Source: Heptranchias perlo (Eukaryota). From it: 64,000 bases of DNA. The DNA lies in assembly GCF_035084215.1 (NCBI RefSeq), contig NW_027139247.1, positions 434,001 to 498,000 of the forward strand, written 5' to 3'. The stretch's first letter is position 1. Each line of letters starts with the position of its first letter. Below, in pieces: positions 9,750 to 60,880 of this stretch. The translations under genes and the position numbers were made by a program. The notes beneath the pieces are model-generated. The model had not been told where the DNA came from and ran no database searches. It worked only from the letters and a program-made list of their open reading frames with translations.

Positions 9750-9980
9750 ATTTAAAAGCCGAAAGCTACCTCGATCCAGTGCTGTCTGAATGAATGTTAT
9801 TTCCTGTTTAATCAGAACCAGTTGGCTCTTGCACTTGCCCAAGATTTGCTTTCATTGACTTTAAGGCTTGCTCATCTGTGGTCCTCGGCTGCCTTTTCAG
9901 GCCCTGATCCCTCTGGTGTATTAACCCGGGGGGGTTCCAGGCTGAGAATGAATACGGCGTCTCAAGCACTTTGCCCTGCT
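9750..9980 (-). pseudogene. Decayed TRIM coiled-coil exon (paralogue of 36451-36684)
   Basis: Acceptor ttgccag at 9981; frameshifted translation IHQRDQGLKRQPRTTDEQALKSMKANLGQVQE/QLVLIKQEITFIQTALD aligns by eye with [49 protein letters not shown]. Confidence 0.6.
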
Positions 9981-10689
9981 CTGGCAACGCAAATAAATTC
10001 AAGGCACAGAAGTTCATCAGAAACGACGTGACTTGCATAAAAGTGAGAACTACAGATCTTAGTGATGTGACATCCGACGGTGATGTCGACAGTCTTGGCC
10101 TCCTCTTTACTTATTTTCCCATTTATCCTCTTAATGTAAGTATGACGTCAGTTTATCCTAATGTTTACGACAGTAAAAAAGAAAATATTTCCTCAATGCA
10201 ACATTTCACATCTTGTGTTCAGTATAACAGTAATTTATTGCAATATTCGGAAGCGAGGTGTTGGAACCAACCGGTGTTGAATTAATGTATAATAAATCTA
10301 AATAACATTTTTTCTTTGTTTTTATTTCCACAAGGAAAATCTATCACAAAATAAATATTTCCTATTCATAGCCCACTGTGAATGGTTGGCTGATAAACTC
10401 ACCATACCCATGTGATCATGCCATCACCTGATAAACTCATGCACAATCTCACCTGTATGCGGGTGCACACTAAATTATGGTACAAAACCGTGTGGTAGGG
10501 ATCGTTGCACGAGGCAACCACAGCACTACCCCGAAATCCCAGCACCAGTCTGCAGGACCGACCCACTCAGTCAATTGGGAACGACTGCATAAAGTTCACT
10601 TCCCAGTGCTCAGTATAATGTGCACCGAAGATTGCACTGTATGCAATGGGAACATTATATGTCAACTAGATAGATAGATAGATCACTGA

Positions 10690-14299: not shown

Positions 14300-14664
14300 T
14301 TGCTCTATAGACTCACTGCGCCCTCCGGTAGTGAGAAACGCTGGGTTAAATGCCGAGGAGAATCCCAGCAAATTAGGCAGACAGGGGGTCTTATCCTCCT
14401 TTCAGAAAAGCTTCAGTCTTCCGCCTTGTTCCTCGTCGGTCAGACCCGTCCCTTTCTGCTCCTGTTTGACTGCTTGGGTTTTGTCCGCCAGACTTGCTAA
14501 GGCCCTGTTGACTTTAAGGCCCATTTGGGGAAACGCCTCTGGACAGAACATCATGTCTGGAACGTGCAGTGTCCACACCTCTGTCACTGGCTGATTATCA
14601 GTCCAACACACAGCGGGCAGATTCAATCCTCCGTCAAGTTTGCAGAACGTTTCGTAGCGACCAT
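14300..14664 (-). pseudogene. Decayed TRIM exon 1 (RING + B-box relic)
   Basis: ATG at 14664: MVATKRSANLTED*ICPLC.../PVT./CGH.../CPEAFPQMGLKVNRALASLADK...EEQGGRLKLF*KEDKT/VCLICWDSPRH..RF; colinear with 42126-42545 but with several stops, frameshifts and lost Zn ligands. Confidence 0.8.
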
Positions 14665-16741: not shown

Positions 16742-17274
16742 TTACATAGTTAAATGGTGCAATTTAAGGGGCTCAGCATTTTTAAAGCTATCGTTCATAT
16801 GAAGAGAAAAGTAAGGGAAGAGTTTCTCAGTGAATGTGTCAGTGTAAGTAAAGAAATGGGACATATCATGAGCATTGTAAAATGACACCTGTCCTTCCTC
16901 ATAGTCCAGGTAAACTCCGAGAGTCCGGGGTTTCACACTCAATGTAAGAATCTCGTCCGCCACAAACTCATCTCCATTTATCAATGACAGAGACCAATAC
17001 CCGTCTTCACAGAGAAGGCTGATCTCTCCCTTCCTATTGGCTGATTCACTGGCCACACCCACAACCCACGAAGACTTGTCCCCGACCTCCACCTCCCAGT
17101 AATGTTTCCCTGATGTGAATCCCTCTGACCCGAGGACACTGGGACACTTATCGAATCTCTCCGGGTTATCAGGAAGTCGGAGATTCCGCTGGCCAAGTGT
17201 CACGCTGGTCTGGTCCTCAGACAGGATGAGCTGAGGATTTGCCGTGTTTGGGTCAAAGGTCAGTGGTGCTGGCA
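16742..17274 (-). CDS. TRIM exon 6: PRY/SPRY (B30.2) domain
   Basis: [20 protein letters not shown]...[14 protein letters not shown]...[16 protein letters not shown]...LFPYFS; acceptor tacaag, stop TAA at 16742. Confidence 0.96.
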
Positions 17275-20200
17275 CTTGTATGAAATAAAAATAACATAAA
17301 ATTAATCACTCCACACAAACAAGTATGAACATTGGCTATTATTTTATATCCGTGTAATTGCATCCTGCACATAGGTCATCCTTATTTAACTGCAAATACT
17401 ACTTTTCATTCATAAATAAATCTCTCTTTCCTTCACACTACTTGTAGAAATTCAGCAGTGCAAAATGGTCAGATGGGCCGCCCGTTATACGCTCCACCTG
17501 ATATTCAAGTCCATTCACTGCAATGAGCTGTGTGTTTAACAGGTGGCTGATGCCATTCCGCCTGTTTGGTGAGATCGCTCAAGACGGATTTCTTTTGATA
17601 TCAAATTCCTAGATCTTTAATTCACCTTGAATTGACAATGATGCAGTAAAGTGATTTCCTGGAACCCACTACATGAACAGAGCTTGAATTTTGTGACTGG
17701 GAAATGTAGCTCGTAGCATTTTAAACACTGGTGTCGAAATTTGTCTTGGGCTGTGAGCAATATCTCATGGACCGCCCGTTATACACCTTGCCCAGTCTTC
17801 GATCCCATTGAAGACGAAGGAGCTGAATATCGGGTGGGGCGTATAATGGGTGGTCCATGAGATAGCGCCCATTTCGCGCCACAGCTCAAGACAAATTTCT
17901 ACCCCCTATAACGGGCCAGCCTTCTGCAGAGTAAACCTTTGAACAGAGGCTACTTTTCCAAGTAGGCACTGCTTGGGGGAACCTCAGCCACCGGCAGCTA
18001 ATCTGGGGCATCACACCGCGAATTTTGGATACTCAGTACCGGGGGGCAAAGTTCCCGTCCACTGGTGTGGAAAGGGCCAGTAACCAGAGAAAGTACTCTT
18101 CATACACAATCCTCCCTCTTTAAGGGACTGAATTCGCTTTTGTAACTTCAACATTGAAATAAAATATCAGAAGGATGGTCCAAGAAGCATTGAGTTAATT
18201 TGTATCCTCTGACAATTCCAAATTAAACTAGGGAAAACCAGACAAGTATTGTGGGTGTGGAATGCAACGGGTGGTTTATAGGAAAATTGCAGGTGCGCTA
18301 TTGAAGATTTTTCACCATTAATTTCAATGGGCCCAAAATCAGGAGCAATTCCCCCAAGTTGCCTTCTTCAGGGAAGCAATGCCCCTGGTGCTGCACCTCG
18401 GAAAATTCAGCCCAGTATCTTAGTAATGTAATCATAGACCGGGTAAGTTCATTCATGCTAATTCAAACACATCCCGACCATTCTTTGCTTTACATTAAGT
18501 GGGAGCCATATGATAAACAGAAGGTCGTATCTCACCAGGAGAGATGATCTCTTTCATTTCTTTCCACACTGTGTACAGTAAAGGTCCCCCGAACATTCCC
18601 AGTATCAGGTCTCCCAATACCACTGGGTTTTCATCATGTTCTTCAGAAGATCCACTCCCACTTTCTTCATCTTCATCACTTCCCTCACTTTCATTTTCAT
18701 CTTCATCACTTTCCTCTGTCCCCTCACTTTCACTTTCTTCACTCCCAAGATATCTGAATGGGATTTCCAAATAGGTTAATTTCTGAAAATAATACTGCAA
18801 AGCATTATCATTGATTAAAATATGGGTTTAGATCATATACGCACCTTTCTGGCAATCTTTTAATTTCCTGCATACAAAGAAAATTGAAGATGAGAATTGC
18901 ATCGATTTACAAGATAGTTTACATTCTACTTTACAATGTATGTAAATCACTGATGAATACCTTGCAATAAGTCCCACTATGAAATCTGGACAAATGTTTC
19001 TGGTGGTCTGAAACGAGACAACTTAATAGCAGCAAAACACGGTGGGCATATATATAATACATTTTGGCACAAACTCCTTTGCATGTTAATATTTATCTAC
19101 AATATATTAGAAATCCTACATCTGCACTGGCCTCCTGTCTACTAAATTTTATTTTCTACTGTCATGTTTTTGTCACTCTAATTTTCCATTACAAATTCCT
19201 ATGTCCTCATTTTTAATAGAAACTTCCCATGTAAACTAGTCACACAACAATTACACCCTTCTGCCAGTGGTGGCACTGCAGTGCCTCAATTTTGCAAGTC
19301 CCAGTGCCTCAGCCTGTATGATAGAGAAACTCGTAGGCTCCAAACAACTCACTTCTCCTTGTTAAATTGGTCTAATTTGTGTTATTTAACTATAAAGAAT
19401 ATTATTAAATCAAAGTAATGTGTAAAAATAAGGACAGAATATATCATAGAATGGCTATAGAACAGAAGGAGGCCATTCAGCCCATCGAACCCATGCCAGC
19501 TCTTTGCAAGAGCAATCCAGTTAGTCCCATTTCCCCACTCTTTCCCCATACCCTGCAATTTTTTTCCCTTCAAGTATTTATCCAATTCCTTTTTGAAAGC
19601 CCACGATTGAATCTGCTTCCACCAACCTTTCAGGCAGCGCATTCCAGATCATAACTACTCGCTGCAGAAATCAGTTTTCCCCCATGTTGTCTTTGCCAAT
19701 CACCCTAAATCTGTGTCCTCTGGTTCTCGACCCTTCCGCCAATGAGAACAGTTTCTCTTTATTTAATTTATGAAAACCCATCATGATTTTGAACACTTCG
19801 ATCAAATCTCCTCTTAAAATTCTCTGCTGTAAGGAAAACAACCCCAGCTTCTTCAGTCTATCCACGTGACTGAAGTTCCTCATCCCTGGAACCATTCGAG
19901 TAAATCTATTCTGCATCCTCTCTAAGGCCTTCACATCCTTCCTAAAGTGTGGTGCCCAGAACTGGACACAATACTCCAGTTGTGACCAAACTAAAGTGTT
20001 TTATAAAGGTTCAACACAAATTCCTTGCTATTGTATGCTATGCCTCTATTTATAAAGTCCAGGATCCCGTATGCTTTTTTAACCGCTTTCTCAACCTGCC
20101 CTGCCACCTTCAAAGATTTGTGCACATATACCCCCAGATCTCTCTGTTCCTGCACCCCTTTAGAATTGTACCATTTAGTTTTATTGCCTCTCCTCATTCT

Positions 20201-23200
20201 TCCTGCAAAAATGTATCACTTCGCACTTCTCTGCGTTAAATTTTATCTGCCATGTGTCCGCCCATTCCACAAGCCTATCTGTGTCCTCTTGAAGTCTATC
20301 ACTATCCTCCTCACTGTTTACTACCCTTCCAAGTTTTGTGTCATCTGCAAATTTTGAAATTGTGCCCTGTACACCCAAGTCCAAGTCATTAATATATATC
20401 AAAAAAGCAGTGGTCCTGGGACCGACCCCTGGGGAACACCACTGTGCACCTCACTCCAGTCTGAAACACAACCGTTCACCACTACTCTGTTTCCTGTCAC
20501 TTAGCCAGTTTCATATCCATGCTGCCACTGCCCCTTTTATTCCATGGGCTTCAATTTTGCCCACAAGCCTATTTTGTGGAACTTTATCAAACGCCTTTTG
20601 AAAGTCCACATACACCACATCAACCGCATTGCCCATATCAATCCTATCTATTACCTCATCAAAAAACTCAATCAAGTTAGTTAAACATGATTTGCCTTTA
20701 ACAAATCTATGCTGGCTTTCCTTTATTAATCCACACTTGTCCAAGTGGCTATTAATTTTGTACCGGATTATAGTTTCCAAAAGCTTCCCCACCACCAAGG
20801 TTAAACTGACTGGCCTGTAGTTGTCGGGTTTATCCTTACACCCTTTTTTGAACAAGGGTGTAACATTTGCAATTCTCCAGTCCTCTGGCACCACCCCCGT
20901 CTCTACGGATGTTTGGAAGATTATGGCCAGTACCTCCGCAATTTCCATCCTTACTTCCCTCAGCAATCTAGAATGCATCCCATCCAGACCCAGGTGACTT
21001 ATCTACTTTAAGGTCAGCCAGCCTTTCTAGTACCTCCTCTTCATCAATTTTTAGCCCATCCAGTATCTCAACTACCTTCCCTTTTACTGTGACTTTGGCA
21101 GCATCTTCTTCCTTGGTAAAGACAGATACAAAGTATTCATTTAGTACCTCGGCCATGCCCTCTGCCTCCATGCGTGGATCTCCTATTTGGTCCCTAATCG
21201 GCCCCACCCCTCCTTTTACAACCCATTTACTATTTATATGCCTTAAGAAGACTTTTGGATTCCCTTTTATGTTATCCGTCAGTCTATTCTCATACTCTCT
21301 CTTTGCCCCTCTTATTTCCTTTTCACTTCTCCTCTGTACTTTCTATATTCAGCCTGGTTCTCACTTGTATTATCAACCTGACATCTGTCATACATCCTCT
21401 TTCTCTGCTTCATCTTACTCTCAATCTCTTTTGTTATCCAGGGAGCTCTGACTTTGATTGCCCGAACTTTCCCCCTCGTGGGAATGTACCTCGACTGTAC
21501 CCGAACCATCTCCTCTTTAAAGGCCGCCCATTGTTCAATTACAGTTTTGCCTGACAATCTTTGATTCCAATTTACCCGGGTCAGATCCGTTCTCAACCCA
21601 CTGAAATTGGCCCTCCTTCAATTAAGTATTTTCTACTCTAGATTGATCCTTGACCTTTTCCATAACTAATCTAAACCTTATGATATTATGATCAGTGTTC
21701 CCTAAATGTTCCCCCACTGACATTTGGTCCACTTGACCCACCTCATTCCCCAGAACCAAGTCCAGCAATGCCTCCTTCCTCAATGGGCCGGAACTATACT
21801 GATCAAGAAAGTTCTCCTGAACACACTTCAGAAATTCATCCCCCTCTTTGCCCTTTACACTATTACTATCCCAGTCTATATTAGGATAGTTGAAGTCCCC
21901 CATTATCACTACTCTATAGTTCTTGCACCTCTCCGTAACTTCCCTGCAAATTTGCTCATCTATATCCTTCCCACTAGTTGGTGGCCTATACAATACACCC
22001 AGTAGTGTAATGGCGTCTTTATTGTGTCTTAACTGTAACCAAATAAATTCTGTCCTTGACCCCTCCAGGACACCCTCTCTCTCCAGCACTGCAATATTCT
22101 CCTTAATCAATACTGCCCCCCCCGACATCTTTATTTCCTTCCCTATCTTTCCTGATCACCTTATATCCAGGAATATTTAGTCCCCAATCCTGCCATTTTT
22201 TGAGCCAGGTCTCCATTATCGCCAGTACATCATATTCCCATGTGGCTATTTACGCCTGCCTTATTTACCATGATTCGTGCGTTTACACACACGCACTCTA
22301 AACCAATCTTAGACCTTCTCGTATTCTCTCTTAGTCTGATCCCACCTAATACTGTAATATTTCTTACTCTAGTGTAAGAATATTGGAAATAGGGAAAAAT
22401 TGACATCTTTTTCTTAAAGCGAATCCCCATCACGCTCTGCAGGCTGAGCTGAATTGAAAATTGTTAACCTTTGACTAGTGACTGACGTGTGACCCTCCTT
22501 GCTGGACTAGGCAGCTACGTGATGAAAGCGGAACAATAATCCAAAGATAGCAACAAGACCAGAACCATGGTTAGATTACTACACAATGCTACTTTCAAAA
22601 AGGATCTTGTGGTTAAATGAGTAATGTTAAAAAAAAAGCTGATTACCTTGAATTTTTTGAAAAATAACTTTGTTAATCTATAAGTGTCTTGTGAGTATTC
22701 TTCCATATATGGTGTGAGTTTCCTGCCCGAGGTGGGGGGCATAAAAACCCAATGTCTTTTGAGCTCAGGGCAGAGGAATCAGCGAAGACCACCAGCTGTC
22801 GAAAGAACACTCAGCTGTCTGAAGACTATCTGACTACCAGAACAACACCTGACTATCAGAAGGCTACCTTACTGTGGGGAAACTTGAAATGACCATGTCG
22901 CCAACTTAATTACGACCTCTGCCCAGAGATCAAACGGAGTAATGGTTTGATCTTTGTTGTCGAAACATTTGATACCTTTACATGTTTGATTTGACTATTA
23001 ATACATGAGACATTGATTACCAATTGGTGTCACCTCTGAATCTGTTACAAATTGGTGAGCCAGCCAGGACGTGACGAATAAATGTTTTGTGTTGACATGT
23101 GATCAAACATCTAGAGGAAAATATGTTTAAATATCAACAAATTTAATTTGACCACAAAAGGCGTGAATTGTTCAAGTTCCAGAGATGAGGTTTTGTTTAG

Positions 23201-26200
23201 TATAAGTGATCATGGCAAGTGTCCATGAAATGTTGGAAAAGAAACTGAAAAAGAAACGAAAGGGGTCCGAGGAATTAATCTCCAAAATAGTGGAGAAGGA
23301 TGGGGCTTACGAGATGGCCATAGAATGGGTCGAGGAGCAAGTTCGAAATAAAAATATGAAGGTGGGAGTTGGCAAAAGGACCCTTATGTGGGCAGCAAAC
23401 TTGTGGGCACTTAAGAGTGAGGAACGAATGAAACAATTAAAAGAGGAAAATAGGAAACAGTTAGAGGAAATCAAAAGACAGTCAGATGAAAACAAGAGGT
23501 TGAAAGAACGTCTGGTGTCTTGACTATGTTCGCAATTGGTGGCTAAAACTGCAACAGCACAGGGACTACAGAGTCCGAAAATATTACAGAGAGAGATAGA
23601 CTTACAGAGAAAAATGGGAGACCAGAGTCGGAACTCGCTGACTGCAGAGGGGCTTTAAGGGACATTATGTGTCGACCCATAAATTCAGTAGATCACCCAC
23701 GGTGCACGTTAACGATTCAGGAGTTACGGGGCAAATTGGGCCAACAAAGGGCTGTGGTCTCTGCGAGGAGTTATGGGAGGAACAGAAAGTATAAATTGGA
23801 ACCCAGAAAGGGAAGATGAGGTAGATTGGAATGGTCTGGCAGGAGAAATGGGGAATGAGGATCGCCAAGGTTGGGTCTATGACAGTCCTGACTACGGAGG
23901 GCCACCCGTACCTGTAAATATGATCACCACTCCCACCAGGCATAATGGGCAGGGTAACGTGACTAGTACAATACAGGAGGAGAAATCAATTTCCCCTCAC
24001 GAGGCAGAGGCTGTGTCTTGGGAGCTAGGATCCATTAAGGAGGGGGATGCTCCAATAGAGGTGTCTCGCTGAATAAGCTCTTTTAATATAGCCCACCAGG
24101 AACTGTCCGAAATAGATTTTTAAAAATGTAATATGGACTGCCTGCCAACAAATAATTAAGATTTCCCTTAAACCCAATATCTATGTCCCTGCCACCCCAT
24201 TGCAGGAGGTTAAACTCGATATTATGCACATAATTGGTATGGATCAAATTAATGTCATTAGTCAATCCGGACACACCACTCAGGGCCCACAGGAACACCC
24301 ACGAGCCTTTGGAAATAGGTTACGGGACCTGTTTGAGCTGACTCAACCCAGAGGAGTAGGGGCTCCAACCAGAGACTCCGAGGTGTTTAAACAGATATTC
24401 CTGTTTCAGTTACACCCACTGGTGAAGACCGCCCTTGGTGCAAGTGTCAATAAAACGACCCAGTGGGTGGACCTAATCTCTTGGAGGCGGCAATACAGGC
24501 CTGGGGAACCCTAAGGGACTGTACGCCCAAAGCTCCACAGGATAAAACGATATCGGCTGTAGATGGGACCAATAGGTTGGGGCAATAATGGGTGGAATAT
24601 GGTCAACAATAGGCACAATGACAGGGGTTTCTGATATCAGAAAATGGGTCACTACGCCGTGGACTGCCGGAGTAATGTAGTGCCCCTTTGGCAGAGAAAC
24701 AATGAGGGAAATCGGACTGTGACTCTCCAAAAACCGGGAGGCATGGAACAAAAATTAGATAAATAAATAACCCTGCTGACTACCCAACAACAGAAATAGA
24801 CACAACAGTATCAAGAACAGTTGAGTGTTAAGAAAGATAATATATGTACAATGACCCAAGAGGGTGGTGATGGAGACGAGGTCGACCGGGAAGGGTTGGC
24901 AGAGGAGGCTGCAAACTATCGTTCCCCAGACAACACGATGGCAATTACAAGGAGCCAATGCTGAGAATAAGGTCGATTGTGAAGGCTTAGCCGAGGACTG
25001 CGAAATGGAAGTCGCAGAAGTCAAAGAATGATTTAAGCATTCCCAAAGCGTGTTACCGAGTAAAATACCAAAAGGGAGAGAGGCAGTCGTAGAGGTTCTA
25101 GAAAGTGAACAGGAAAGAGACTGGAACTCTCCCCCGGTTCCCGATTACCCCCTTTCTATTCACTATACCCCATCCTTCCAAAAAAAGAGGAGGAGGGAGA
25201 AAACTTTTCAACAGGAGGGCCAATATAAGCCTGATAAATGGTCTTTCCCACATGAGATTTTAAATCGTAACAAAATTGCGTTAAGCAGGAAACATCAGAG
25301 ATTGAAAATGAAGATCAGAGATAAAGGATAGATGATTTAAAACAGGAGGGCAAAAGATGAAAAGGGAAGATTCTGTCTCTCCTACTGTTACAAGCTACTG
25401 GATTTTTCTTTAGTTTTTAGTGTACTGTCTCTTGAAGTGTACTGTCTCTTTAAGTGTGTCGCACTCTGCAGCGTGCAGGCTGCAGCTGGTTTCATTTCCT
25501 CTTCTTTCACAAAACTGAAGCAGCGTTCACCCTTTGTATTCCCGGTCGTTTAATAGAAGCATTTCAAATTGTTGTTTTTTTCCTCAGCATAGTACCACTG
25601 TTAAATGTACAAGAAGGAGTCAAAAGAGTTTGGAGAACTATTACACAATTAAGGGACTATGTCCTATTTTATGTCTGTGAGATTTGAGATCGAAATCCAC
25701 TGTTTTCTTTTCAATTCGGCAAAGTTTCTTTAAATTGAGTTGAAATCTGCCTGAGCACGGAGCTGCTGTGATGAAGCTCGCTCCGCCTCCTTTTCAGTCA
25801 GTACTGCAAAGAAGTTTTAAAATCATGTTGCCTTCCACAGAGTTAGTTCCACATTTGGGACGACTTTGACCTTGTGGTCTACAGCCGTCCAACAGGGGAA
25901 GTTAGTTGGTCACAAAGTACAGAGCGTCCAAGACCACAGACATCAGGTCAAGATTGTGTCGGGTGTTCTACTCAAGTCTCCAAATAAAAGGAGGTTGAAG
26001 AAATAATTCTTTGTGCTTTCTCCACCGGCTGAAGTGAAATGGACAATGTGATATTAATTATATTTATTATTGGGGAGTATAATATGACAGGGTTTTAGAA
26101 ACTGTAAAATGTGCCCTCAGTGAATAAGGTCCAATTTACGCTACTGTGGTAAATGCCCACAAGAGACATGCAGATAAAATGGGAATGAGAGGTAGAGAGT

Positions 26201-42545: not shown

Positions 42546-42584
42546 GTCACCTCCACTCCCTCTTACTCTGGACTCCAAACCTTG

Positions 42585-44544: not shown

Positions 44545-44583
<39 letters not shown>

Positions 44584-44652
44584 AAATGGAAAGACATTTA
44601 ATGAACATTTCAATTTGCCTGAAATCAGTGGAGTTTTTAAAACATTAATCAG

Positions 44653-45850: not shown

Positions 45851-46087
45851 AGGATTGCAATCATTAGGAACAAGAGTCGGCCATTCAGCCTGTTCTACCA
45901 TTCAATTAAATCATGGCTGATCTGTATCTTAACTCCTTCTACCCCCCTTGGTTCCATAACCTTTAATACCCTCGCCCAACAAAAATCGATCAATCTCAGT
46001 TTTGAAATTTTCAATTGACCCCCAGTCTCAGCAGCTTTTTGGGGGAGAGAGTTCCAGATTTCCACTCCCCTTTGTGTGAAGAAGTGT

Positions 46088-46325
46088 TCTGCCCCCCACC
46101 CTATCAAAGACCTTCCCTTTTGTTCCTCCCTCCCCCTCCCACCTCCCTCTCCCACCTTCCTCCTTTCCCTGGCTCTGTACTTGCTTAAAAACTGTTTAAT
46201 CTTCAACTTTTTCTAGTTCTGACAAAGGGTCTTTGACCTGAAACGTGAACACTGCCTCTTTCACCACAGATGCTGCCTGACTTGCCGAGTGTTTCCAGCA
46301 TTTTCTATTTTTATTTCCGATTTTA
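46088..46325 (+). mobile_element. Penelope-like terminal fragment with a degenerate hammerhead, inside a CR1 fragment (45865-46500, minus)
   Basis: gtt-CTGACAA-agggtc-ttt-gacct-GAAA-cgtg-aac...cacagatgctgcctgacttgccgagtgtttccagcattttc. Confidence 0.65.
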
Positions 46326-46855
46326 AGGTTCTGCCCCCTTGTTCTGGACTCTCCCACCAGAGGAAATAGTTTCTCTCTATCTACCCTATCAACTCCTTTT
46401 AATCATTTTACACACCTCAATTAAATCACTCCTCAATCTTCTATACTCAAGGGAATAAAGCCTAGTCTATGCAACTTGTTCACACAAATTAATCCTTTTG
46501 GACCAGTCGATATCTCCCCACCCCCAAACCGACTGTCCCCCCCGGGCCGGGTTGGCCCCAAGACCGAACCTGATCCAGACGTAATTAAGATTAGTATAAA
46601 AGCACATCCAACCCGTGCCCTTTTCAATTGATGGGTTTGTTTTGGATTCTGATAGTTACCATTTCCTCACTCCCTCCACCTGCTCCTCTTTCCCACACCC
46701 CTCTCTTTCCTCCCTCACTCTCCTTTACCCCATCCCCTTCTGCTCCTTCATTTCCCTCCCCTGTCTTCACCCATTCCCCCTCTCTTCTCTCACTTCCCTC
46801 CAGCCTTCTCACTCCTCTTCCACTCCTCATCCACAGCCCCTCACCCGGAGAACTT

Positions 46856-47625
46856 GGGTTAGATACAGAGTAAAGCTCCCTCTACACTGTCCCATCAAAC
46901 ACTCCCAGGGCAGGTACAGCACGGGTTAGATACAGAGTAAAGCTCCCTCCACACTGTCGCATCAAACACTCCCAGGGCAGGTACAGCACGGGTTAGATAC
47001 AGAGTAAAGCTCCCTCCACACTGCCCCATCAAACACTCCCAGGGCAGGTACAGGGTTAGATACAGAGTAAAGCTCCCTCCACACTGCCCCATCAAACACT
47101 CCCAGGGCAGGTACAGGGTTAGATACAGAGTAAAGCTCCCTCTACACTGTCCCATCAAACACTCCCAGGGCAGGTACAGGGTTAGATACAGAGTAAAGCT
47201 CCCTCTACACTGTCCCATTAAACACTCCCAGGGCAGGTACAGCACGGGCTAGATACAGAGTAAAGCTCCCTCTACACTGTCCCATCAAACACTCCCAGGG
47301 CAGGTACAGCACGGGTTAGATACAGAGTAAAGCTCCCTCTCCACTGTCCCATCAAACACTCCCAAGGCAGGTACAGCATGAGTTAGATACAGAGTAAAGC
47401 TCCCTCTCCACTGCCCCATCAAACGCTCCCAGGGCAGGTACAGAATGAGTTAGATACAGAGTAAAGCTCCCTCTACACTGTCCCATCAAACACTCCCAGG
47501 GCAGGTACAGCACGGGTTAGATACAGAGTAAAGCTCCCTCTACACTGTCCCATCAAACACTCCCAGGGCAGGTACAGCATGGGTTAGATACAGAGTAAAG
47601 CTCCCTCTACACTGTCCCATCAAAC
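46856..47625. repeat. 63-67-bp tandem repeat, ~12 copies
   Basis: gggttagatacagagtaaagctccctctacactgtcccatcaaacactcccagggcaggtacagcac. Confidence 0.95.
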
Positions 47626-47814
47626 ATCTGAAGATGGAGCATGGGTGATATTCTGGGTGGTCCTGGCACGTACACCAGTTAAGAGTTTGCAACTTCAGGA
47701 GAATATGGGAGGAGAATGGAAGAAAATATATCGTTCGTGGAATTAACTACTGAAAATGGATCTTGTTGGTCAGCAGGTGAGGAACCTGCTGTTCTCTGCT
47801 CGTCTCTGACATTG

Positions 47815-48135
47815 TCTGTCTCTGCTGGACTCTGTCGCTTTCTGCTGGTCTCTGCCAGTCCCTTCTGGTCTCTGATGTTCTCTGCTGGTCACTGCAGAAC
47901 TCTGCCGGTCTTACTGGTCTCTGCCGGTCACTGCAGGACTCTGCCGGTCACTGCAGGACTCTGCCGGTCTCTACTGATCTCTGCCGGTCACTGCAGGACT
48001 CTGCCGGTCTCTACTGATCTCTGCCGGTCACTGCAGGACTCTGCCGGTCTCTGCTCATCACGGCAGGACTCTGCCAGTTTGTACTGGTCTCTGATGGGTT
48101 TTGCTGGTCTCTGATGAGCTCTGCTGGTCTCTCCT
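47815..48135. repeat. Degenerate short tandem repeat spanning the MHC-like cytoplasmic tail and 3' UTR
   Basis: Recurring ctctgccggtcactgcagga / ctgctggtctct modules. Confidence 0.8.
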
Positions 48136-48248
48136 GTTTTGCCTCTTGCTCCAGAAACCAATTCCGACGATGATGCCAAGAAGAGTGAGTGAGACGGCTG
48201 CTGCTCCAGTCCCAATCCCGACATTCGTGCCTCCTTCTGTCGCCCTCT
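48058..48248 (-). CDS. MHC-I-like connecting peptide + TM + cytoplasmic exon
   Basis: caatag|ERATEGGTNVGIGTGAAAVSLTLLGIIVGIGFWSKRQNRRDQQSSSETSKTHQRPVQTGRVLP*; hydrophobic span followed by basic stop-transfer residues; not present in the ORF track. Confidence 0.85.
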
Positions 48249-51200: not shown

Positions 51201-54200
51201 AATGATCCAGAGGCACGGGGAATGACCCAGAGGCACAGGGAATGACCCAGAGGCACAGGGAAGGATGCAGAGACACGAGGAAGGATGCAGAGGAACGGGG
51301 AATGATCCAGAGGCACAGGGAATGACCCAGAGGCACAGGGAAGGACCCAGAGGCACGGGGAATGACCCAGAGGCACGGGGAATGACCCAGAGGCACAGGG
51401 AATGACCCAGAGGCACAGGGAAGGATGCAGAGGCACGAGGAATGATCCAGAGGCACGGGGAAGGACCCAGAGGCACAGGGAATGATCCAGAGGCACAGGG
51501 AATGATCCAGAGGCACGGGGAAGGACCCACAGTCACGGGGAAGGACCCAGAGGCACAGGGAAGGACCCAGAGGCACAGGGAATGACCCAGAGGCACAGGG
51601 AATGACCCAGAGGCACAGGGAAGGATGCAGAGGAACGGGGAATGATCCAGAGGCACAGGGAATGACCCAGAGGCACGGGGAATGACCCAGAGGCACGGGG
51701 AATGACCCAGAGGCACAGGGAATGACCCAGAGGCACAGGGAATGACCCAGAGGCACGGGGAATGACCCAGAGGCACAGGGAATGACCCAGAGGCACGGGG
51801 AATGACCCAGAGGCACAGGGAATGACCCAGAGGCACGGGGAATGACCCAGAGGCACAGGGAATGACCCAGAGGCACGGGGAATGACCCAGAGGCATGGGG
51901 AAGGACCCTGTGGGCCCCCAAGACACGGGGAAAAGCCCTGCGGCCCTCCCGAGAATCGGGGAAGGACCCAGAGTTCCAGGAAGTACCTCGCGGCCCCCCC
52001 GAGACACAGGGAAAGACCCTGAGGACCCCCCCCCGATTTGCCACTCACCCCAGGGTACGTTGATCCCCCGCAGGAGGCTGGCGTGCTCGATATGACAGGA
52101 GTAGCTCTTCCTGTCGTCTCCACTCAGCTCGATCGTTTTCAGTACCCGATAGGTCATATCCTGGTTGGGCAGCACGTCACTGGATTCAATGTCAGCGACC
52201 TCCTCGCCATTCCCCAACCAAGTCACCTCGATGGCCCAGGGGTAGAACCCCGACACAAGGCAGGAGACCCTTAGCACTCTGTCCCCGTCACTCCTCTTCC
52301 CAATAAACACCTCAGGGGCGACTGAGAGATTTAAACAAAGAGTACAATCGGTGACAAGTTCTCTTCTTTTGCCTTCATTTCTTCCCCGCCCACCACCATC
52401 AATTTTCTCGGCCTGAAGGCAGATGACTGATGCTGAGAGACAGCTGGAGTTCACCGGAGTTCAGCTGAGGGGTCACCTGATAGAGGTCGTTAAGATTATG
52501 AAAGGGTTTGATAGGATAGACGTAGGGAAGATGGGCGCTAAATAGGGCCGTGTAGCGCCCGTTGTTTCAGCGCGAGACGGCCTCTCCGACATCCAAGATC
52601 GCATCTCGGATGCGCACGCACATTTCCAGCGTGACGTACGCCAGACGCCATCTTGGTTTTGGAGTTAGTGCAGGCGCAGATAACGAACACTGGAATCATG
52701 TAAAGTAGGGAGAAAATGGCTTCAATCAGTGTGCAACGCTGATTTAAAGTGATAGACATCATTTCGGGACTTAACGCTCAACTCAACACACAGTCTTAAC
52801 CCTGACCATCTGAACGTGTCTTAGAGTGCCTGGAGGACCCCCCACCTGCGCTATTTAAAGGGACGACGCAGGATTTACAGGTTAGTGGCTGGATTACTGC
52901 TTCTGGCTGCCGAGACATTTCTGGCTGTTTTTGGAGGTCTCCTAGACTTGAATACCAGGACGCGGGGAAATAGCCTAACATTTAGATCCAGGATGTGCAG
53001 GTGTGAAGTTAGGAAATGCTTCTTCACACAAAGGGTGGGAGATGTTTGGAACACTCTTCTACAGACGGCAGTTGATGCGAGCTCACTTGTGAATGTTAAA
53101 TCTGAGATTGATAGATTTCTGTGAACCAAGGGTATTAAGGGATATGGGGCGAAGGTGGGTATATGGAGTTAGGTCACAGGTCCATCATGATCTCATTGAA
53201 TGGTGGAACAGGCTCGAGGGGCTGAATGTCACTGCCACGTGCTGCCTCTTGATATGCGCCACCTTCTCCTGTGTCTGGGTGATGTGCCTGTCATGGTTGA
53301 ATAGCTGCCAGTGTGTGTGGCCTGTGAGTTGTGGGTGGGTGGCTTGAAACAGTGGTAATGTGTGAGGGTGAGAGGAAGCATCTGATGGGAAGAGTTGAGT
53401 ACTGATGGAAAGAGTTTGTTGGTATGTGGGTGATGGGGGTGTAGTGTGTGGGGCAGTTGTTTGGAGACACCACTTGACAGTTGACCTCACTCACCTTGAC
53501 CACTCATGTCAAAGCATTGAACTTCTTCCTGCACTGCATCCATGTTCATGATGCTGTGAGCCTGGCATTGACTTCGTCCCCCGTTGCCTCCCACTGGCTT
53601 TTGAGTATATGTCTGGAGGGTCTCTGCCCCCCCCTCCCTTCCCCCCACTGTGGATATAGGATGTCCCTCCTTCTGTCCACCTCTTGCACCAAGGCCTCTA
53701 GTGCATCAGCAGAGAACCTTGGTGCACGTACTCTCACAGGCCTGGTACCAACTCAGATCGGCAGATTGGTGAGGTCTGGTGTGCAGATTGGAGGATGTGG
53801 GATTTAGTAGTGCGCAACCTTTATTCAATGTTTTAACATAACTCATCAGTGTGTAAACATAGGGATGGGACCTGCATCGTGTTTTACATGTGCTATGTCT
53901 GATCTCTGTTCAGACTCCGTGCAGACTGTTATTTTCAGCAAATAACAGGTACCAGCTACCTTTAAGAGATTTCCAACAAACATCCTCCCTTTAAGAGATT
54001 GGACTCCCTCTGGTGGTGGAAAGTGTGAATTGCATTGATTCCAGGTGCAAGGCCTGGGATGGAACGCTGATCGCAGGTCGGTCCTCGGGTGGGTCGAAAC
54101 TTGCATCCTGCCTGCGCCGGGACCATTGGACACGGGGTAAAGCACATCACGCTGCCCCCGCCCAAAAACGGCCACATCCAAATTTTTCCCCCGATGTTTC

Positions 54201-57200
54201 CACTTGTGGCAGAGGCCTGAACGAGGGGCCATAAATATAAGAGAGTCACTAATAAATCCAATGGGGAATTCAGGAGAAACTCAGAGAGTGGTTTGAATGT
54301 GGAGCTCGCTCTCACAAGGAGTAGTTGAGGCGAATAGCACAGATGCCTTTAAGGGGAAGCTGGATAAACACATGAGGGAGAAAGGAATAGAAGGATATGC
54401 TGATCGGGGGAGATGAAGTAGGGAGGGTGCAGCAATAACACTGGCATAGACCTGTTGGGCCGAATGGCCTGTTTCTGTGTTGTAAATTCCATGTAACGGG
54501 TCACGTTCCGGTAACGCACACAAGCACCCAGTGTTCACGAGTGAGCCTTCACAGTGAGGACCAGGACGCTATTCAACCATGGGGGTATTACAATTTAGTT
54601 GAACCCCGTGCTCACCCGATGTCAACACGCACGGGCTTTCCAGCCGGGGAGACTGAGTAGGTCATCGGATTTAGGTCACCTGCCCGATTATCTCCCCCAT
54701 CCCCACCCCCCACCCCAAGGGGTACTGAGGCCAGGTGCAGCACCCCTCACTGCTACCCTGTCCGGGAACAGCTGGCTCAGGACAGACTGGGAATATAAAT
54801 TTTGCCTGTACGGCACCTCCAGTTCCCGCTCGCTCGAGGTACCTTTCCTCTGTAGTGCTTCTCGCCCAGCCCGAAGGTATATCAGCAGCCACTTCACACA
54901 GTCCTTTTCCAACAGGGTCTTGAAGTATTTGTTCATGAAGGTGTTCGCATTCCACCGGTCTGCTAAAGTCTGGAACTCTGGATTCACCGCAATCCAACTC
55001 AATCTGTCCTTGTCAAAAACATACGCGTCCTCCCCGTCATATCCAAACTTTATAAACCCCTCCGTGGAGTTGTCGCTGTTCAGTTCGCAGCCACACATTC
55101 CCTGGACAAAGAAAACACCTGGAGAAACAACTCAAGTCAATTGAAAATGTGAAAAGGGTTCGATCGGGTACATACAACAACAACAACTTGCATTTATATA
55201 GCGCCTTTCACGGAGTAAAACATCACAAGGCACTTGACAAACAAAATTTGACACCGAGCCACATAAGGAGATATTAGGACAGGTGAGCAAAAGCTTGGAC
55301 AAAGAGGTAGGTTTGAAGGAGCATCTTAAAGGAGGAGAGAGAGGCGGAGAGGTTTAGGGAGGGAATTCCAGAGGGACTATTTCCTCAGGTGGGGGAATCA
55401 AGATCTTAGATTTAGAGCCAGGCCATTTAGGAGTGAAATCAGGAAGCACTTTATCACACAAAGGGGAGTGGGAATCAGGAACTGTCTCCCCCAAAAGGCT
55501 GTGGGATGCTGGGGGCCCATTGGAGCTTTCAAGACTGAGATTGTTAAATTTTTGTTCGGTAAGGGTATCGATGGATTGGAAGCAAAGGCTGGAAAATGGA
55601 GTTACGGTGCAGAATAGCCATGATATAAATGAATGGTGGAGCAGGCTCGAGGGGCTGAATGGCCTCTTCCTCTTTCGATGCTCCTGAGCAGCTGTGTTAC
55701 GTTGAGGTTCCATTTATGTCCTGCTGTCTTGAACTTTAACCTTAGCAATAGGTTAGATTGTCACAGAGAGTCATCGATCTCTGGAATTTCAGTGGGATGA
55801 GAACAGATCTGGTCCCGGGTAAATTGGAATCAAAGATTGTCAGGCAAAACTGTAATTGAACAGCGGGCGGCCTTTAAGGAGGAGATGGTTCGGGTACAGT
55901 CTCCACGAGGGGGAAAGGTCGGGCAACTAAAGCCAGAGCTCCCTGGATGACAAAAGAGATAGAGAGTAAGATGAAACAGGAAAAAGGGGCGTATGACAGA
56001 TATCAGGTTGATAATACAAGTGAGAACCAGGCAGAATATAGAAAGTTCAGAGGGGAAGTGAAAAAGGAAATAAGAGGGGCAAAGAGAGAGTCTGAGAATA
56101 GACTGGCGGCCAACATAAAAGGGAATCCAAAAGTCTTCTATAGGCATCTAAACAGTAAACAGGTAGTAAGAGGAGGGGTGGGGCCGATTAGGGACCATAA
56201 AGGAGATCTACTCATGGAGGCAGAGGAGATGGCCAAGGTACTAAATGAGTACTTTGCATCTGTTTTTACCAAGGAAGAAGATGCTGCCAGAGTCTCAGTA
56301 AAGGAAGATATGGTTAAGATACTGGATGGGCTAAAAATTGATATAGAAGAGGTACTGGAGGGCACAATTCTAAAAGGGTACAGGAACAGAGAGATCTGGG
56401 GGTATATGTGCACAAATCATTCAAGGTAGCAGGGCAGGTTGAGAAAGCGGTTAAAAAAGCATCCTGGATCCTGGGCTTTTTAAAAAGAGGCATAGAGTAC
56501 AAAAGTGTGGAAGTCATGATGAACCTTTATAAAACACTGGTTCGGCCACAACTGGAGTATGGTGTCCAGTTCTGGGCACCGCACTTTAGGAAGGATGTGA
56601 AGGCCTTAGAGAGGGTGCAGAATTGATTTACCAGAATGATTCCAGGGATGAGGGACTTTAGTTGTGTGGATAGACTGGAGAAGCTGGGGTTGTTCTCCTT
56701 GGAACAGAGACGGTTGCGAGGAGATTTGATAGAGGTGTTTAAAATCATGAAGAAACTATTCCCATTGATGGAAGGGTTAAAAACCAGAGGTCATAGATTT
56801 AAGGTGATTGGCAAAAGAACCAAAGGTGACTTGAGGAAAAACTTTTTTACACAGCGAGTGGTTAGGATCTGGAATGCACGGCCCGAGGGGGTGGTGGAGG
56901 CAGATTCAATCGTGGACTTCAAAAGGGAACTGGATAAGTAATGAAAGGAAAAAATTTGCAGGGCTACGGGGATAGGGCAGGGGAGAGGGACTAGCTGGAT
57001 TGCTCTTGCATAGAACCAGCACGGACTCAATGGGCCGAATGGCCTCCTTCCGTGCTGTTACCTTTCTGTGATTCGATGAACAAGTTGCCTGCATGCACAG
57101 TGTGTGTGGGTGGACTGCAAGTGTTGGAAAGGGGACTGGCGACCAATAGAAAGTATCTCGAGTTATAGGAGGTGTGTGGGGTTAATGGGGACCAGTGATA

Positions 57201-60200
57201 TCAGACACTGTGGTCTCCTGCACCTTCCTCGATTCCCTGGGTGGGGGGGTCGCAGAGGAATCTCCCAGAGTGTTTGCTTTCCTAACTTGGCCTCAGTTTC
57301 ATCCTCTTTCTTTGGCCTCTCCCAGGAGATTGTGTGACTGTGGGAGGGAGAGGGTGCTGATGGTGTGTGTGTGTGTGTTGTTTCACCGTGCCAAGACAGG
57401 ACAGGCTTGATGGACCCGCCTGTCCTGATTTCATCTGTTTGTTAGTAACCCTGGCAACGCAGCTTTAGAAGAGGAGAAACAAGTGGCAGCGATGATTTCA
57501 TTCCAACGTTCAAGGTGCTCACATCAAATCCCTCAGTGCTGCCCCTCCCTCAGTGCTGCCCCTCCCTCAGTGCTGCCCCTCCCTCAGTGCTGCCCCTCCC
57601 ACAGTGCTGCCCCTCCCACAGTGCTGCCCCTCCCTCAGTGCTGCCCCTCCCTCAGTGCTGCCCCTCCCTCAGTGCTGCCCCTCCCTCAGTAATCCCCTCC
57701 CACAGTGCTGCCCCTCCCTCAGTGCTGCCCTCCCTCAGTGCTGCCCCTCCCACAGTGCTGCCACTCCCTCAGTGCTGCCCCTCCCTCAGTGCTGCCCCTC
57801 CCACAGTGCTGCCCCTCCCTCAGTGCTGCCACTCCCTCAGTGCTGCCCCTCCCTCAGTGCTGCCCCTCCCTCAGTGCTGCCACTCCCTCAGTGCTGCCCC
57901 TCCCTCAGTGCTGCCCCTCCCACAGTGCTGCCCCTCCCACAGTGCTGCCCCTCCCTCAGTGCTGCCCCTCCCACAGTGCTGCCCCTCCCTCAGTGCTGCC
58001 CCTCCCACAGTGCTGCCCCTCCCACAGTGCTGCCCCTCCCTCAGTGCTGCCCCTCCCTCAGTGCTGCCCCTCCCACAGTGCTGCCCCTCCCTCAGTGCTG
58101 CCCCCTCCCTCAGTGCTGCCCCTCCCTCAGTGCTGCACTGGGAGTGCCAGCCGAGATTTTGTGCTCCAGTCTCTGGAGTGGGTCTTGAACCCACAACCTT
58201 CTGAACTAGAGGTGAGAGTAAGAAGGTCGTGGTTTCAGGCCCCACTCCAGAGATTTGAGCTCATTATCCGGGCTGAAACTCCAGTGCAGGACTGAGGGAG
58301 CGCTGCACTGTCGGAGAGGCAGTACTGAGGGAGCGCTGCACTGTCGGAGGGGCAGTACTGAGGGAGAGCTGCACTGTCGGAGGGGCAGTACTGAGGGAGT
58401 GCTGCACTGTCGGAGGGGCAGTACTGAGGGAGTGCTGCACTGTCGGAGGGGCAGTACTGAGGGAGTGATGCACTGTCGGAGGGGCAGTACTGAGGGAGTG
58501 ATGCATTGTCGGAGGGGCAGTACTGAGGGAGTGATGGACTGTCGGAGGGGCAGTACTGAGGGAGTGATGCTTTGTTGGAGGGGCAGTACTGAGGGAGTGA
58601 TGCATTGTCGGAGAGGCAGTACTGAGGGAGTGATGCATTGTCGGAGGGGCAGTACTGAGGGAGTGATGCATTGTCGGAGGGTCAGTACTGAGGGAGTGAT
58701 GCACTGTCGGAGGGGCAGTGCTGAGGGAGTGATGCATTGTCGGAGGGGCAGTACTGAGGGAGTGATGCATTGTCGGAGGGGCAGTACTGAGGGAGTGATG
58801 CATTGTCGGAGGGGCAGTACTGAGGGAGTGATGCATTGTCGGAGGGGCAGTACTGAGGGAGTGATGCATTGTCGGAGGGGCAGTACTGAGGGAGTGATGC
58901 ATTGTCGGAGAGGCAGTACTGAGGGAGTGATGCACTGTCGGAGGGGCAGTAGTGAGGGAGTGCTGCACTGTCGGAGAGGCAGTACTGAGGGAGTGCTGCA
59001 CTGTCGGAGAGGCAGTACTGAGGGAGTGATGCACTCTCGGAGGGTCAGTACTGAGGGAGCGCTGCACTGTCGGAGAGGCAGTACTGAGGGAGTGCTGCAC
59101 TGTCGGAGAGGCAGTATTGAGGGAGTGCTGCACTGTCGGAGGGGCAGTACTGAGGGAGTGATGCACTGTCGGAGGGGCAGTACTGAGGGAGTGATGCATT
59201 GTCAGAGGGGCAGTACTGAGGGAGTGATGGACTGTCGGAGGGGCAGTACTGAGGGAGTGATGCTTTGTTGGAGGGGCAGTACTGAGGGAGTGATGCATTG
59301 TCGGAGAGGCAGTACTGAGGGAGTGATGCATTGTCGGAGGGTCAGTACTGAGGGAGTGATGCACTGTCGGAGGGGCAGTGCTGAGGGAGTGATGCATTGT
59401 CGGAGGGGCAGTACTGAGGGAGTGATGCATTGTCGGAGGGGCAGTACTGAGGGAGTGATGCATTGTCGGAGGGGCAGTACTGAGGGAGTGATGCATTGTC
59501 GGAGGGTCAGTACTGAGGGAGTGATGCATTGTCGGAGGGGCAGTACTGAGGGAGTGATGCATTGTTGGAGGGGCAGTACTGAGGGAGTGATGCATTGTCG
59601 GAGGGGCAGTACTGAGGGAGTGATGCATTGTCGGAGGGGCAGTACTGAGGGAGTGATGCATTGTTGGAGGGGCAGTACTGAGGGAGTGATGCATTGTCGG
59701 AGGGGCAGTACTGAGGGAGTGATGCATTGTCGGAGGGTCAGTACTGAGGGAGTGATGCACTGTCGGAGGGGCAGTGCTGAGGGAGTGATGCATTGTCGGA
59801 GGGGCAGTACTGAGGGAGTGATGCATTGTCGGAGGGGCAGTACTGAGGGAGTGATGCATTGTCGGAGGGGCAGTACTGAGGGAGTGATGCATTGTCGGAG
59901 GGGCAGTACTGAGGGAGTGATGCATTGTCGGAGGGGCAGTACTGAGGGAGTGATGCATTGTCGGAGAGGCAGTACTGAGGGAGTGATGCACTGTCGGAGG
60001 GGCAGTACTGAGGGAGTGCTGCACTGTCGGAGAGGCAGTACTGAGGGAGTGCTGCACTGTCGGAGAGGCAGTACTGAGGGAGTGATGCACTCTCGGAGGG
60101 TCAGTACTGAGGGAGTGATGCACTCTCGGAGGGGCAGTACTGTGGGAGTGCTGCACTGTCGGAGAGGCAGTACTGAGGGAGTGCTGCACTGTCGGAGAGG

Positions 60201-60880
60201 CAGTACTGAGGGAGTGATGCACTCTCGGAGGGGCAGTACTGAGGGAGTGCTGCATTGTCGGAGGGACAGTACTGTGGGAGTGCTGCACTGTCGGAGATGC
60301 CGTCCTTCAGATGAGACGTTAAATCGAGGCCCCGTCTTCCTGTTCAAATGAACATAAAAAGAACCAATTGCTCCCATTTCTCCCTCAATCCACACCAATA
60401 AAAACAGATGAACAAATCAATCATCTCATTGCCATTTGCTGTGCTGAAAATGTCTGCCATGTTACTCCCAGATAGTGCCAATGACCAGGTCATCCCAAGT
60501 CATTTAATGGGTGTAAAGTGGTTCGGGACATTTCTCCGAGACAGGATAAGGCTCTATATGGATACAAATCCTTTCCTCCTGTCAGTCGATAGCTGCACCG
60601 GCTCTGTGAGGATACTCACTCGAGGCACCGTGTTGCTGTCGGTAAAATATCTCGGCGTTTCCTCTGACCAGACCATGGAACCCCGCCATTGTGATGGCGA
60701 TGGCGTCCCAGTGATGGTTGTCGAAGGAGTCGGCCATCCACTGCTGTCTGGGCACAGTCCGCTGCAGGGTGCTGTCGAAATACACTATCTCATAGTCATC
60801 GAGCATCGCGACCAAGCTGTACTCGGGCATCTCGGCCCCGCCACGGCTCAGTATGTAGTAAAATGCGAGGATGTGGAAAT
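48058..60880 (-). CDS. Non-classical MHC class I-like heavy chain (alpha1-alpha2-alpha3-TM/cyt); leader exon not found
   Basis: join(complement 60620-60880, 54843-55118, 52049-52321, 48058-48248); exons of 261/276/273/191 bp, all phase 1, GT-AG, no internal stop. Confidence 0.93.
48715..50185. repeat. 49-bp G-rich minisatellite (~30 copies) amplified from a CR1 3' end
   Basis: gatacagggctatggggagagagtggggcagtgggattagtttgggatt, continuous with the CR1 fragment 48590-48720. Confidence 0.95.
50375..50915 (-). mobile_element. SINE with internal 33-bp tandem expansion (50695-50915)
   Basis: L2-like tail at 50385; units cagtgcagcactccctcagtactgaccctccga are reverse-complementary to the 58285-60298 array. 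Confidence 0.8.
50920..52030. repeat. 20-bp minisatellite (~50 copies) abutting the alpha3 donor
   Basis: aatgacccagaggcacaggg variants. Confidence 0.95.
52049..52321 (-). CDS. MHC-I-like alpha3 (Ig C1) exon
   Basis: VAPEVFI...VSCLVSGFYPWAIEVTW...VLPNQDMTY...YSCHIEHASL...VPW|gtgagt. Confidence 0.96.
52533..54192. mobile_element. Non-autonomous Harbinger element (copy B), inserted in a CR1 fragment (52450-54490)
   Basis: Perfect 3-bp TSD gat (52530-52532 / 54193-54195); [24 protein letters not shown]; colinear with copy A. Confidence 0.87.
54843..55118 (-). CDS. MHC-I-like alpha2 exon
   Basis: SVFFVQGMCGCEL...FGYDGED..VFD...WIA...RW...LEKDCVKWLLIYL..GREALQRK. Confidence 0.96.
55175..55370 (-). 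mobile_element. L2 3' end
   Basis: (caa)n cttgcatttatatagcgcc; reverse complement of 38050-38260. Confidence 0.8.
55375..55685 (+). mobile_element. CR1 3' fragment
   Basis: agagccaggccatttaggagtgaaatcaggaagcac...gcaggctcgaggggctgaatggcc. Confidence 0.75.
55785..57070 (+). mobile_element. CR1 ORF2 fragment with the RT core deleted
   Basis: [10 protein letters not shown]...VLNEYFASVFTKE...EEVLE|GTILKG...LVRPQLEY..QFWAP. Confidence 0.9.
57530..58225 (-). repeat. 17-bp minisatellite within a SINE head
   Basis: (cctcagtgctgcccctc)n, then gattttgtgctccagtctctggagtgggtcttgaacccacaacc. Confidence 0.93.
58285..60298 (+). repeat. 33-bp minisatellite (~60 copies) expanded inside a SINE (58220-60580)
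   Basis: cagtactgagggagtgatgcattgtcggagggg; the SINE body resumes with gccgtccttcagatgagacgttaaatcgaggcccc. Confidence 0.96.
60620..60880 (-). CDS. MHC-I-like alpha1 exon
   Basis: ctgcag|DFHILAFYYILS...PEYSLVAMLDDYEIVYFDS...VPRQQWM...HWD...|gtgagt. Confidence 0.94.

Follow-up and report, generated by a model that had tools for sequence, protein, structure and literature searches.

The nonclassical class I molecules of cartilaginous fishes that come closest to the gene described here are UGA, represented by the nurse shark structure 9CH4, and UFA (8GM8). The available text of a review (PMC12562908) lists UBA, UEA, UDA, UFA and UGA, and calls UFA and UGA CD1-like lipid binders, the lipid binding of UGA being cited there as a personal communication. 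The class I queries seen in the supplement of another paper (PMC10751288) are UAA, UAA-2, UBA, UCA, UDA, UFA, UGA and UHA; the word 'trim' is absent from its main text, and TRIM genes appear in its gene tables. Class IV TRIM genes, which encode a RING, a B-box and a coiled coil (RBCC) followed by a B30.2 domain, are enriched near genes of the major histocompatibility complex (MHC) in mammals, birds and zebrafish, and the accessible part of PMC3137616 calls for shark data. We have analysed a 64,000-nucleotide window of the sevengill shark Heptranchias perlo, a stretch of repeat-rich shark DNA to whose positions all coordinates below refer, which carries a class I-like gene and two TRIM sequences, TRIM-A and TRIM-B, all on the minus strand. 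Our best explanation, which we consider likely when taken as a whole, is that the window derives from the MHC class Ib region of the sevengill and that its class I gene belongs to an apparently unnamed lineage, sister to UGA.

Four exons of the class Ib gene lie in the window; all are bounded by GT-AG splice sites, meet in phase 1 and keep the reading frame open. They encode alpha-1 (60620..60880, AG/GT ends, phase 1; Pfam MHC_I, E 3.9e-6), alpha-2 (54843..55118; MHC_I, E 1.8e-18), alpha-3 (52049..52321; C1-set, E 6.9e-17) and a transmembrane segment and tail ending in TGA (48058..48248), the last matching the C-terminus of the H. perlo RefSeq protein XP_067834248.1 (P0002). The alpha-1 exon is 100% identical to this model, which is placed on a 529,794-bp contig, and the protein of the window is identical to the RefSeq model. 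A signal-peptide exon was not found in the window, where the best match covered 8 of 17 residues. The alpha-1, alpha-2 and C1-set alpha-3 domains, the transmembrane segment and the phase-1 exons are those of an MHC class I heavy chain, and the protein carries both the C101-C164 and the alpha-3 disulfides. A structure model of the ectodomain shows a normal class I fold (predicted local distance difference test, pLDDT, 86); an earlier model built on 17 sequences (pLDDT 58) was discarded.

By sequence and by fold, the closest match in the PDB is 9CH4, entitled 'shark nonclassical MHC CLASS I, UGA', at 41% identity; in the fold search it stood first with a Z score of 28.7 and a root-mean-square deviation of 1.9 over 268 residues. 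A tree of 42 ectodomains, with no UAA, UBA or UFA row knowingly in it, places the 13 rows of the window lineage in one clade (support 100/100) and five UGA rows, among them nurse shark and skate, in another (100/99), and joins the two as sisters (99/96), leaving the UDA-, UEA/UCA- and U-type rows outside. The window protein therefore branches with UGA and outside the UGA clade itself, and the same pairing is recovered from alpha-1 alone (98) and from alpha-2 alone (84). The lineage covers 17 shark and ray species, H. perlo and 16 others from which orthologs were retrieved. Cluster-representative orthologs share 64-76% identity with the window protein (60% for one 244-residue Pristiophorus model), and the alpha-2 exon shares 71-80% with orthologs against 39-46% with UGA rows. 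Outside H. perlo a single gene was retrieved per species, Pristiophorus yielding two proteins. Basking shark (P0015) and white shark (P0175) each carry a UGA gene besides the UGA-sister gene, on the same chromosome, and so the window gene is not UGA itself; 9CH4 matches P0015 with an E value of 4e-137 and the window protein with 1.8e-70.

Both clades contain rays or skate, and because batoids occur in each of them the tree shows that the duplication which separated the class Ib lineage from UGA predates the split of sharks and rays, some 270-300 million years ago. P0199 agrees by eye with the UGA query that the supplement gives for little skate. A further protein, P0225, resembles by eye the chimaera 'UGA' query given there and is sister to UGA and the window lineage together (96/87), and chimaera UGA may be co-orthologous to the two elasmobranch genes. 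Literature searches returned no description of a second UGA-like lineage, although subscription papers, theses and bioRxiv supplements may name it; by eye, the class I query set seen from PMC10751288 holds no member of the lineage, and a protein-family atlas lookup returned generic MHC_I clusters alone. The gene encodes an intact nonclassical heavy chain of an apparently unnamed lineage.

The groove of this lineage differs from that of classical class I molecules. At positions 7, 59, 84, 123, 143, 146, 147, 159 and 171, which we take to be the conserved peptide-terminus anchors of classical class I, the window protein has F, H, Q, A, L, R, W, L and Y; only W147 and Y171, two of the nine, are kept, the replacements are nearly fixed across the lineage, and on its peptide anchors the protein does not group with classical class Ia. 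Over 42 groove-facing positions, a list we assume to be transferable from HLA-A2, mean hydropathy lies between +1.01 and +1.46 in all 15 lineage rows that were scored, against +0.10 to +0.57 in four UGA rows and a median of -0.06 over the other class I rows that were scored, 74 of 75, one of which stands higher than the lineage. The row that exceeds the lineage is a tuna class I-like protein (P0036, +1.57). In the window protein 27 of the 42 positions are hydrophobic and two are charged, a hydrophobic lining of the kind found in CD1-like class I. These positions are also better conserved within the lineage than the remainder of alpha-1 and alpha-2 (83% against 73% identity).

CD1 tails carry a tyrosine-based endosomal motif, though some isoforms lack it. 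A Tyr-x-x-hydrophobic motif occurs in none of the 15 lineage rows and stands at the tail end in two of the four UGA rows, both from sharks, the tails having been scored from automatic gene models. At 47780-48150 (minus strand) the tail of the window gene runs into a 10-base tandem array, and such repeats lengthen the tails of orthologs and of one further H. perlo copy. Groove chemistry and kinship to UGA suggest that the class Ib molecule has a fixed hydrophobic ligand that is not a peptide and is probably a lipid; for lipid in particular the argument draws on what the review says of UFA and UGA. The heavy chain would most likely pair with beta-2-microglobulin, and the ligand held in its conserved groove may be presented to an innate-like (invariant) T-cell receptor or a receptor of natural killer (NK) type. 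Since the tail is without the tyrosine motif of the two shark UGA proteins, loading probably takes place outside late endosomes, by a route other than that of UGA.

A second feature of the gene is its number of copies in H. perlo. Eleven sequences under 12 accessions (P0002, P0158-P0167) are 96.8-99.6% identical to the window protein and are spread over at least seven small contigs, two of which hold three copies each. The gaps between the accession numbers of these copies leave space for intervening genes. With 12 near-identical models here and one gene retrieved in most other species, a recent amplification of the class Ib gene in H. perlo is likely, as part of the joint explanation given above.

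The TRIM sequences downstream were the other half of a sequence-only reading of this window, which saw a class I-like gene directly upstream of a tandem TRIM pair and proposed an MHC-linked antiviral cassette. Its layout was accurate: it put the class I stop about 5.5 kb from the TRIM start codon, and the gap (42546..48057), which contains pieces of long interspersed nuclear elements and tandem arrays, measures 5,512 bases; the three genes are co-oriented as it stated, an arrangement with a one-in-four chance of arising for three genes. Its account of the TRIM genes has to be revised. TRIM-A comprises six exons, from the ATG at 42545 to a stop at 16742, and its Pfam domains RING, B-box, TRIM_CC, PRY and SPRY follow in the order that defines a class IV TRIM. 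Exon 1 (42126..42545) encodes the RING and B-box, exon 2 (36938..37033, 96 nt, aligning with orthologs) and exon 3 (36451..36684; TRIM_CC, E 6.9e-7) the coiled coil, exon 4 (18845..18867, ortholog alignment) is of 23 nt, exon 5 (18536..18753) encodes an acidic Ser/Glu/Asp linker common to the orthologs, and exon 6 (16742..17274; PRY 4e-24, SPRY 6.1e-23) encodes the B30.2 domain and is open to its TAA. The gene had been read as intact, but codon 25, within the RING, is TAG in the assembly sequence (42471..42473) where all four full-length orthologs have Glu, and the next in-frame Met is residue 150, beyond the RING and B-box, so that the RBCC-B30.2 frame is not open in full. This is the single stop in 507 codons, and 67-73% identity to orthologs represents normal divergence; TRIM-A is either recently dead or the TAG is an error. 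No protein of at least 309 residues with the B30.2 of TRIM-A occurs among the best 120 of 982 matches, the annotation being likely to derive from the same assembly.

The TRIM-A linker, some 40 residues long and placed ahead of the B30.2 domain, is conserved among four shark orthologs both in its length and in its character. Its B30.2 v1 loop is much less conserved than the rest of the domain (42% against 74% identity over five orthologs), and a variable v1 loop is a trait of pathogen-binding TRIMs; the nearest solved B30.2 domains, those of BTN3A, pyrin and TRIM21, match with similar scores. Two A33-like models of about 700 residues, from Stegostoma and Heterodontus (P0147, P0153), have a duplicated coiled-coil/PRY block that represents either fused neighbours or a real internal duplication. 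We read TRIM-A as a conserved A33-like class IV TRIM with one recent nonsense change in H. perlo.

TRIM-B is a different matter. Its RING/B-box remnant, at about 14310..14664 with frameshifts and stops, is recognised by profile (independent E value, i-E, 7.7e-7, and 0.034 in the next frame) with no match in the reversed control. A probable coiled-coil exon remnant in two frames (9777..9921) is weak, with i-E 0.023 and 1.6 against 12 for the best control, and was matched by one of 127 queries (E 0.022). Nothing above the reversed control represents its B30.2 domain, linker or exon 2 in 1-16700, and Pfam has no match on the two TRIM-B frames submitted to it. The supposed tandem pair dissolves here: TRIM-B is 34% identical to TRIM-A against 40-44% to another shark TRIM subfamily, with 27.7 against 46.6 bits, so that the two are not each other's closest relatives. 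TRIM-B is probably an old fragment of that other subfamily.

MHC linkage was assessed through orthologs in other elasmobranchs. The sawfish ortholog, XP_051899694, directly precedes XP_051899695, the product of LOC127585977, and no other gene found on chromosome 34 is called a 'class I-related gene'; the ortholog is therefore LOC127585976, a gene marked as MHC-Ib by Verissimo et al. in their published gene table. Its distance is 0.86 Mb to B2M, 0.90 Mb to BRD2, 2.7 Mb to class II and 3.2 Mb to TAP1, all of them among the neighbours by which the sequence-only reading had proposed to recognise the MHC. This is an MHC-linked class Ib position, on the chromosome that holds B2M, BRD2, class II and TAP; a classical class Ia gene would be tightly linked to TAP1/2 and PSMB8/9, and the sawfish gene, 3.2 Mb from TAP1, is in the class Ib cluster. 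The published cluster, 0.86 Mb from B2M, thus supports MHC linkage of the window gene in H. perlo.

The local order also recurs, in part. LOC127585976 adjoins three TRIM-named genes in the sawfish table, where the order TRIM39-like (minus), A33-like (minus), TRIM39-like (plus), class I (plus) matches that of the window, except that the class I gene is turned round and lies 86-100 kb away; the orthology of the TRIMs is judged there by names. In all four species with both genes, the orthologs of TRIM-A and of the class I gene occupy chromosome-length contigs of equal size, and in two of the four, the catsharks S. torazame and S. canicula, their RefSeq accessions are consecutive, which we infer to mark neighbouring genes. 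In the part of the catshark table seen, two pairs of loci fit the consecutive accessions, LOC119975561/562 and LOC119975567/568, with neither singled out; in either case the class I gene would lie ahead of a short gene and on the same strand. In basking shark the TRIM-A accessions follow UGA and not the UGA-sister gene, and in Mustelus the accessions are uninformative; placement of the white shark ortholog by accession order was ambiguous and was dropped. The ancient TRIM-class I linkage of the sequence-only reading is thereby upheld as MHC linkage and as a neighbourhood that, on ortholog comparison, is supported as old; the synteny it proposed to compare is seen in the catsharks by accession and in sawfish by names, with a different orientation in sawfish and a different neighbour in basking shark. 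We attribute the adjacency to a chromosome dense in class IV TRIMs and to inherited local order: by hand count, 11 of the 94 non-RNA rows of the sawfish MHC table between 9.5 and 15.7 Mb are TRIMs (about 12%), so that a TRIM would be expected as immediate neighbour of a given class I gene in about 22% of cases, and many further TRIMs are listed elsewhere on that chromosome. The class I gene and the TRIMs would be separate genes, and functional coupling is not part of this picture.

Several observations weigh against the explanation as we have put it. Its linkage to the MHC is inferred for H. perlo from orthologs, and adjacency in other species is read from accession order and gene names. From Heterodontus no class Ib ortholog was retrieved although a TRIM-A ortholog exists there, and a tree of alpha-3 leaves the pairing with UGA unresolved. 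In the fold search, classical class I molecules and MR1 stand almost level with UGA (Z 27-28.4), and because they are within 1-2 Z units the search gives no evidence of a lipid groove. The TAG of TRIM-A is known from the assembly and not from reads, and the 12 class I models may in part be unmerged haplotypes. The lipid binding of UGA has as its source, in the part of PMC12562908 seen, a personal communication.

Under a stronger version of our explanation, elasmobranchs would possess a second CD1-like class Ib lineage, as yet unnamed, that is sister to UGA, arose before sharks and rays parted, and has a still more hydrophobic groove and different trafficking. Its recent amplification in the sevengill, about tenfold, would have taken in an expressed TRIM paralog, the class I and TRIM genes having been duplicated and selected as a unit. 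Read contigs bear on this. Four runs from one sample were compared, three of them presumed to be RNA, and 40 of 638 difference rows were listed, the TAG site not among them. DNA contigs over unique parts of the TRIM-A region have depths of 52-68, and one over part of exon 1 (window 42298-42549) has a depth of 614, contig depth being no copy number. This contig matches TRIM-A exon 1 except for a patch of paralog type, 12 bases or, by another count, 19 bases long, which recurs in contigs of the three presumed RNA runs and encodes the motif seen in a neighbouring paralog type of Heterodontus. Such contigs point to an expressed, probably multi-copy TRIM relative rather than to the copy in the window, and gene conversion, or a multi-copy TRIM that is chimeric, is suggested by the patch. 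That this relative was amplified along with the class I gene is no more than a lead, and the unit as a whole is a tentative idea that we regard as doubtful.

It is unlikely that the nonsense codon and the many class I copies are artefacts of assembly, TRIM-A being intact and the class I gene present in one or few copies. TAG is a single base change away from the conserved Glu codon, and TRIM-A is otherwise undamaged; the class I copies are about 99% identical and on small contigs, and DNA contigs of one read run differ from the window at a few sites. Yet 11 distinct proteins, with two contigs holding three each, are more than a single locus could supply from two haplotypes, so that haplotypes explain part of the copies and not all; and the spliced RNA-type contigs, because their exon 1 carries the patch of paralog type, are no evidence of an intact TRIM-A.

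The antiviral cassette, in which the class I gene and the TRIMs would be co-selected and co-regulated within one antiviral pathway, for example by TRIM-driven proteasomal breakdown feeding presentation, fares poorly. It could call upon the recurrence of the neighbourhood in the two catsharks and, judged by gene names, in sawfish, which makes it look old; upon the hypervariable v1 loop of TRIM-A; upon an exon 1 paralog contig some tenfold deeper than the unique parts of the gene, near the class I copy count; and upon the TRIM-proteasome axis in the proto-MHC that Boudinot et al. 2011 proposed in the available text of PMC3137616. But the class I groove is without seven of the nine peptide anchors, and it is not obvious what a class I molecule that does not hold peptides would gain from proteasome products made through TRIM action. 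In the H. perlo assembly both TRIMs are disabled, TRIMs are scattered through the sawfish stretch at the frequency given above, and there the class I gene points away from the A33-like one, on the opposite strand 100 kb off with another TRIM between them; in basking shark the TRIM accessions follow those of UGA. A cassette is therefore unsupported and, in our judgement, quite improbable. The birth-and-death turnover that was read from the window is visible in other terms: one recent TRIM death, one old unrelated fragment and a recent class I amplification. Finally, that the gene is merely the diverged UGA ortholog of H. perlo, a reading to which the standing of UGA as best PDB match by sequence and fold and the groove motifs common to both might lend colour, is scarcely credible when identity to UGA is 41-47% against 64-76% to its own orthologs, rays included, when white and basking sharks hold both genes with 9CH4 so much nearer to P0015, and when the two form separate, fully supported clades.

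The remainder of the window is largely repetitive. TRIM-A intron 3, of 17.6 kb, hosts an old, decayed long terminal repeat (LTR) element (22373..28937, plus strand and antisense to TRIM-A) whose LTRs are 77% identical over 742 columns and both start with TG; it has a stretch resembling a primer-binding site, broken frames and a weak Gag_p30 match (E 0.011) under the curated cut-off. A Myb/SANT-like frame (1468-1935; Pfam E 4.4e-5) lies within transposon remains at 597-1935, and a 1.6-kb repeat pair, 90% identical, stands in a TRIM-A intron (34461-36067) and a class I intron (52533-54121); both the remains and the pair we take to be a Harbinger-like transposon. Minisatellite arrays with periods of 17-67 (30120-32730, 46856-47626, 48723-50184, 50929-51908 and 57529-60296) fill introns and yield long spurious open frames.

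As regards TRIM-MHC linkage the window adds little, because the idea is old and the shark arrangement is already contained in published gene tables. Its value lies in an apparently unnamed, conserved sister lineage of UGA whose groove is very hydrophobic and which has recently expanded in this shark. With about a dozen near-identical models where most other species yielded one gene, this deep-water shark offers a testable case of recent class Ib expansion. Should the molecule bind lipid, at least three such lineages (UFA, UGA and the UGA sister) would have persisted in sharks and rays, which bears on when lipid presentation arose.

Set beside known systems, TRIM-A resembles the class IV (RBCC-B30.2) TRIMs annotated as 'zinc-binding protein A33-like' in its RING, B-box, coiled coil, PRY-SPRY and six exons, and differs in belonging to a shark ortholog group with an acidic linker and in being broken in H. 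perlo. As a neighbourhood of TRIMs and class I genes, the nearest known parallels are the TRIM clusters of the human class I region and of the chicken B locus. With MR1 the class Ib protein shares its RefSeq name, 'MHC class I-related', the best alpha-2 match and a close fold match; identity is only about 33-34%, the window has Leu at the position aligned with MR1 Lys43, presumably the ligand-bonding residue, and an MR1 identity was rejected, the name being automatic and identity about 34%. UFA and CD1 share with the window protein a hydrophobic groove and the nonclassical class I character. UFA (8GM8), which by eye equals the UFA query in the part of the supplement seen, is the second-best alpha-1 match at 5e-10 against 1e-22 for UGA, and neither CD1 nor UFA is among the 50 listed fold matches, which counts neither for nor against a kinship. 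The closest analogue remains UGA, the sister clade, with the same fold, the same alpha-1 and alpha-2 helix motifs and A123 and L159 in common. From it the window lineage is set apart by 41-47% identity, by F7, H59 and Q84 in place of Y7, Y59 and K, Q or R84, by a more hydrophobic groove (+1.0 to +1.5 against +0.1 to +0.6), by a tail without the Tyr-x-x-hydrophobic motif that ends two of the four UGA tails and, in H. perlo, by its multiple copies.

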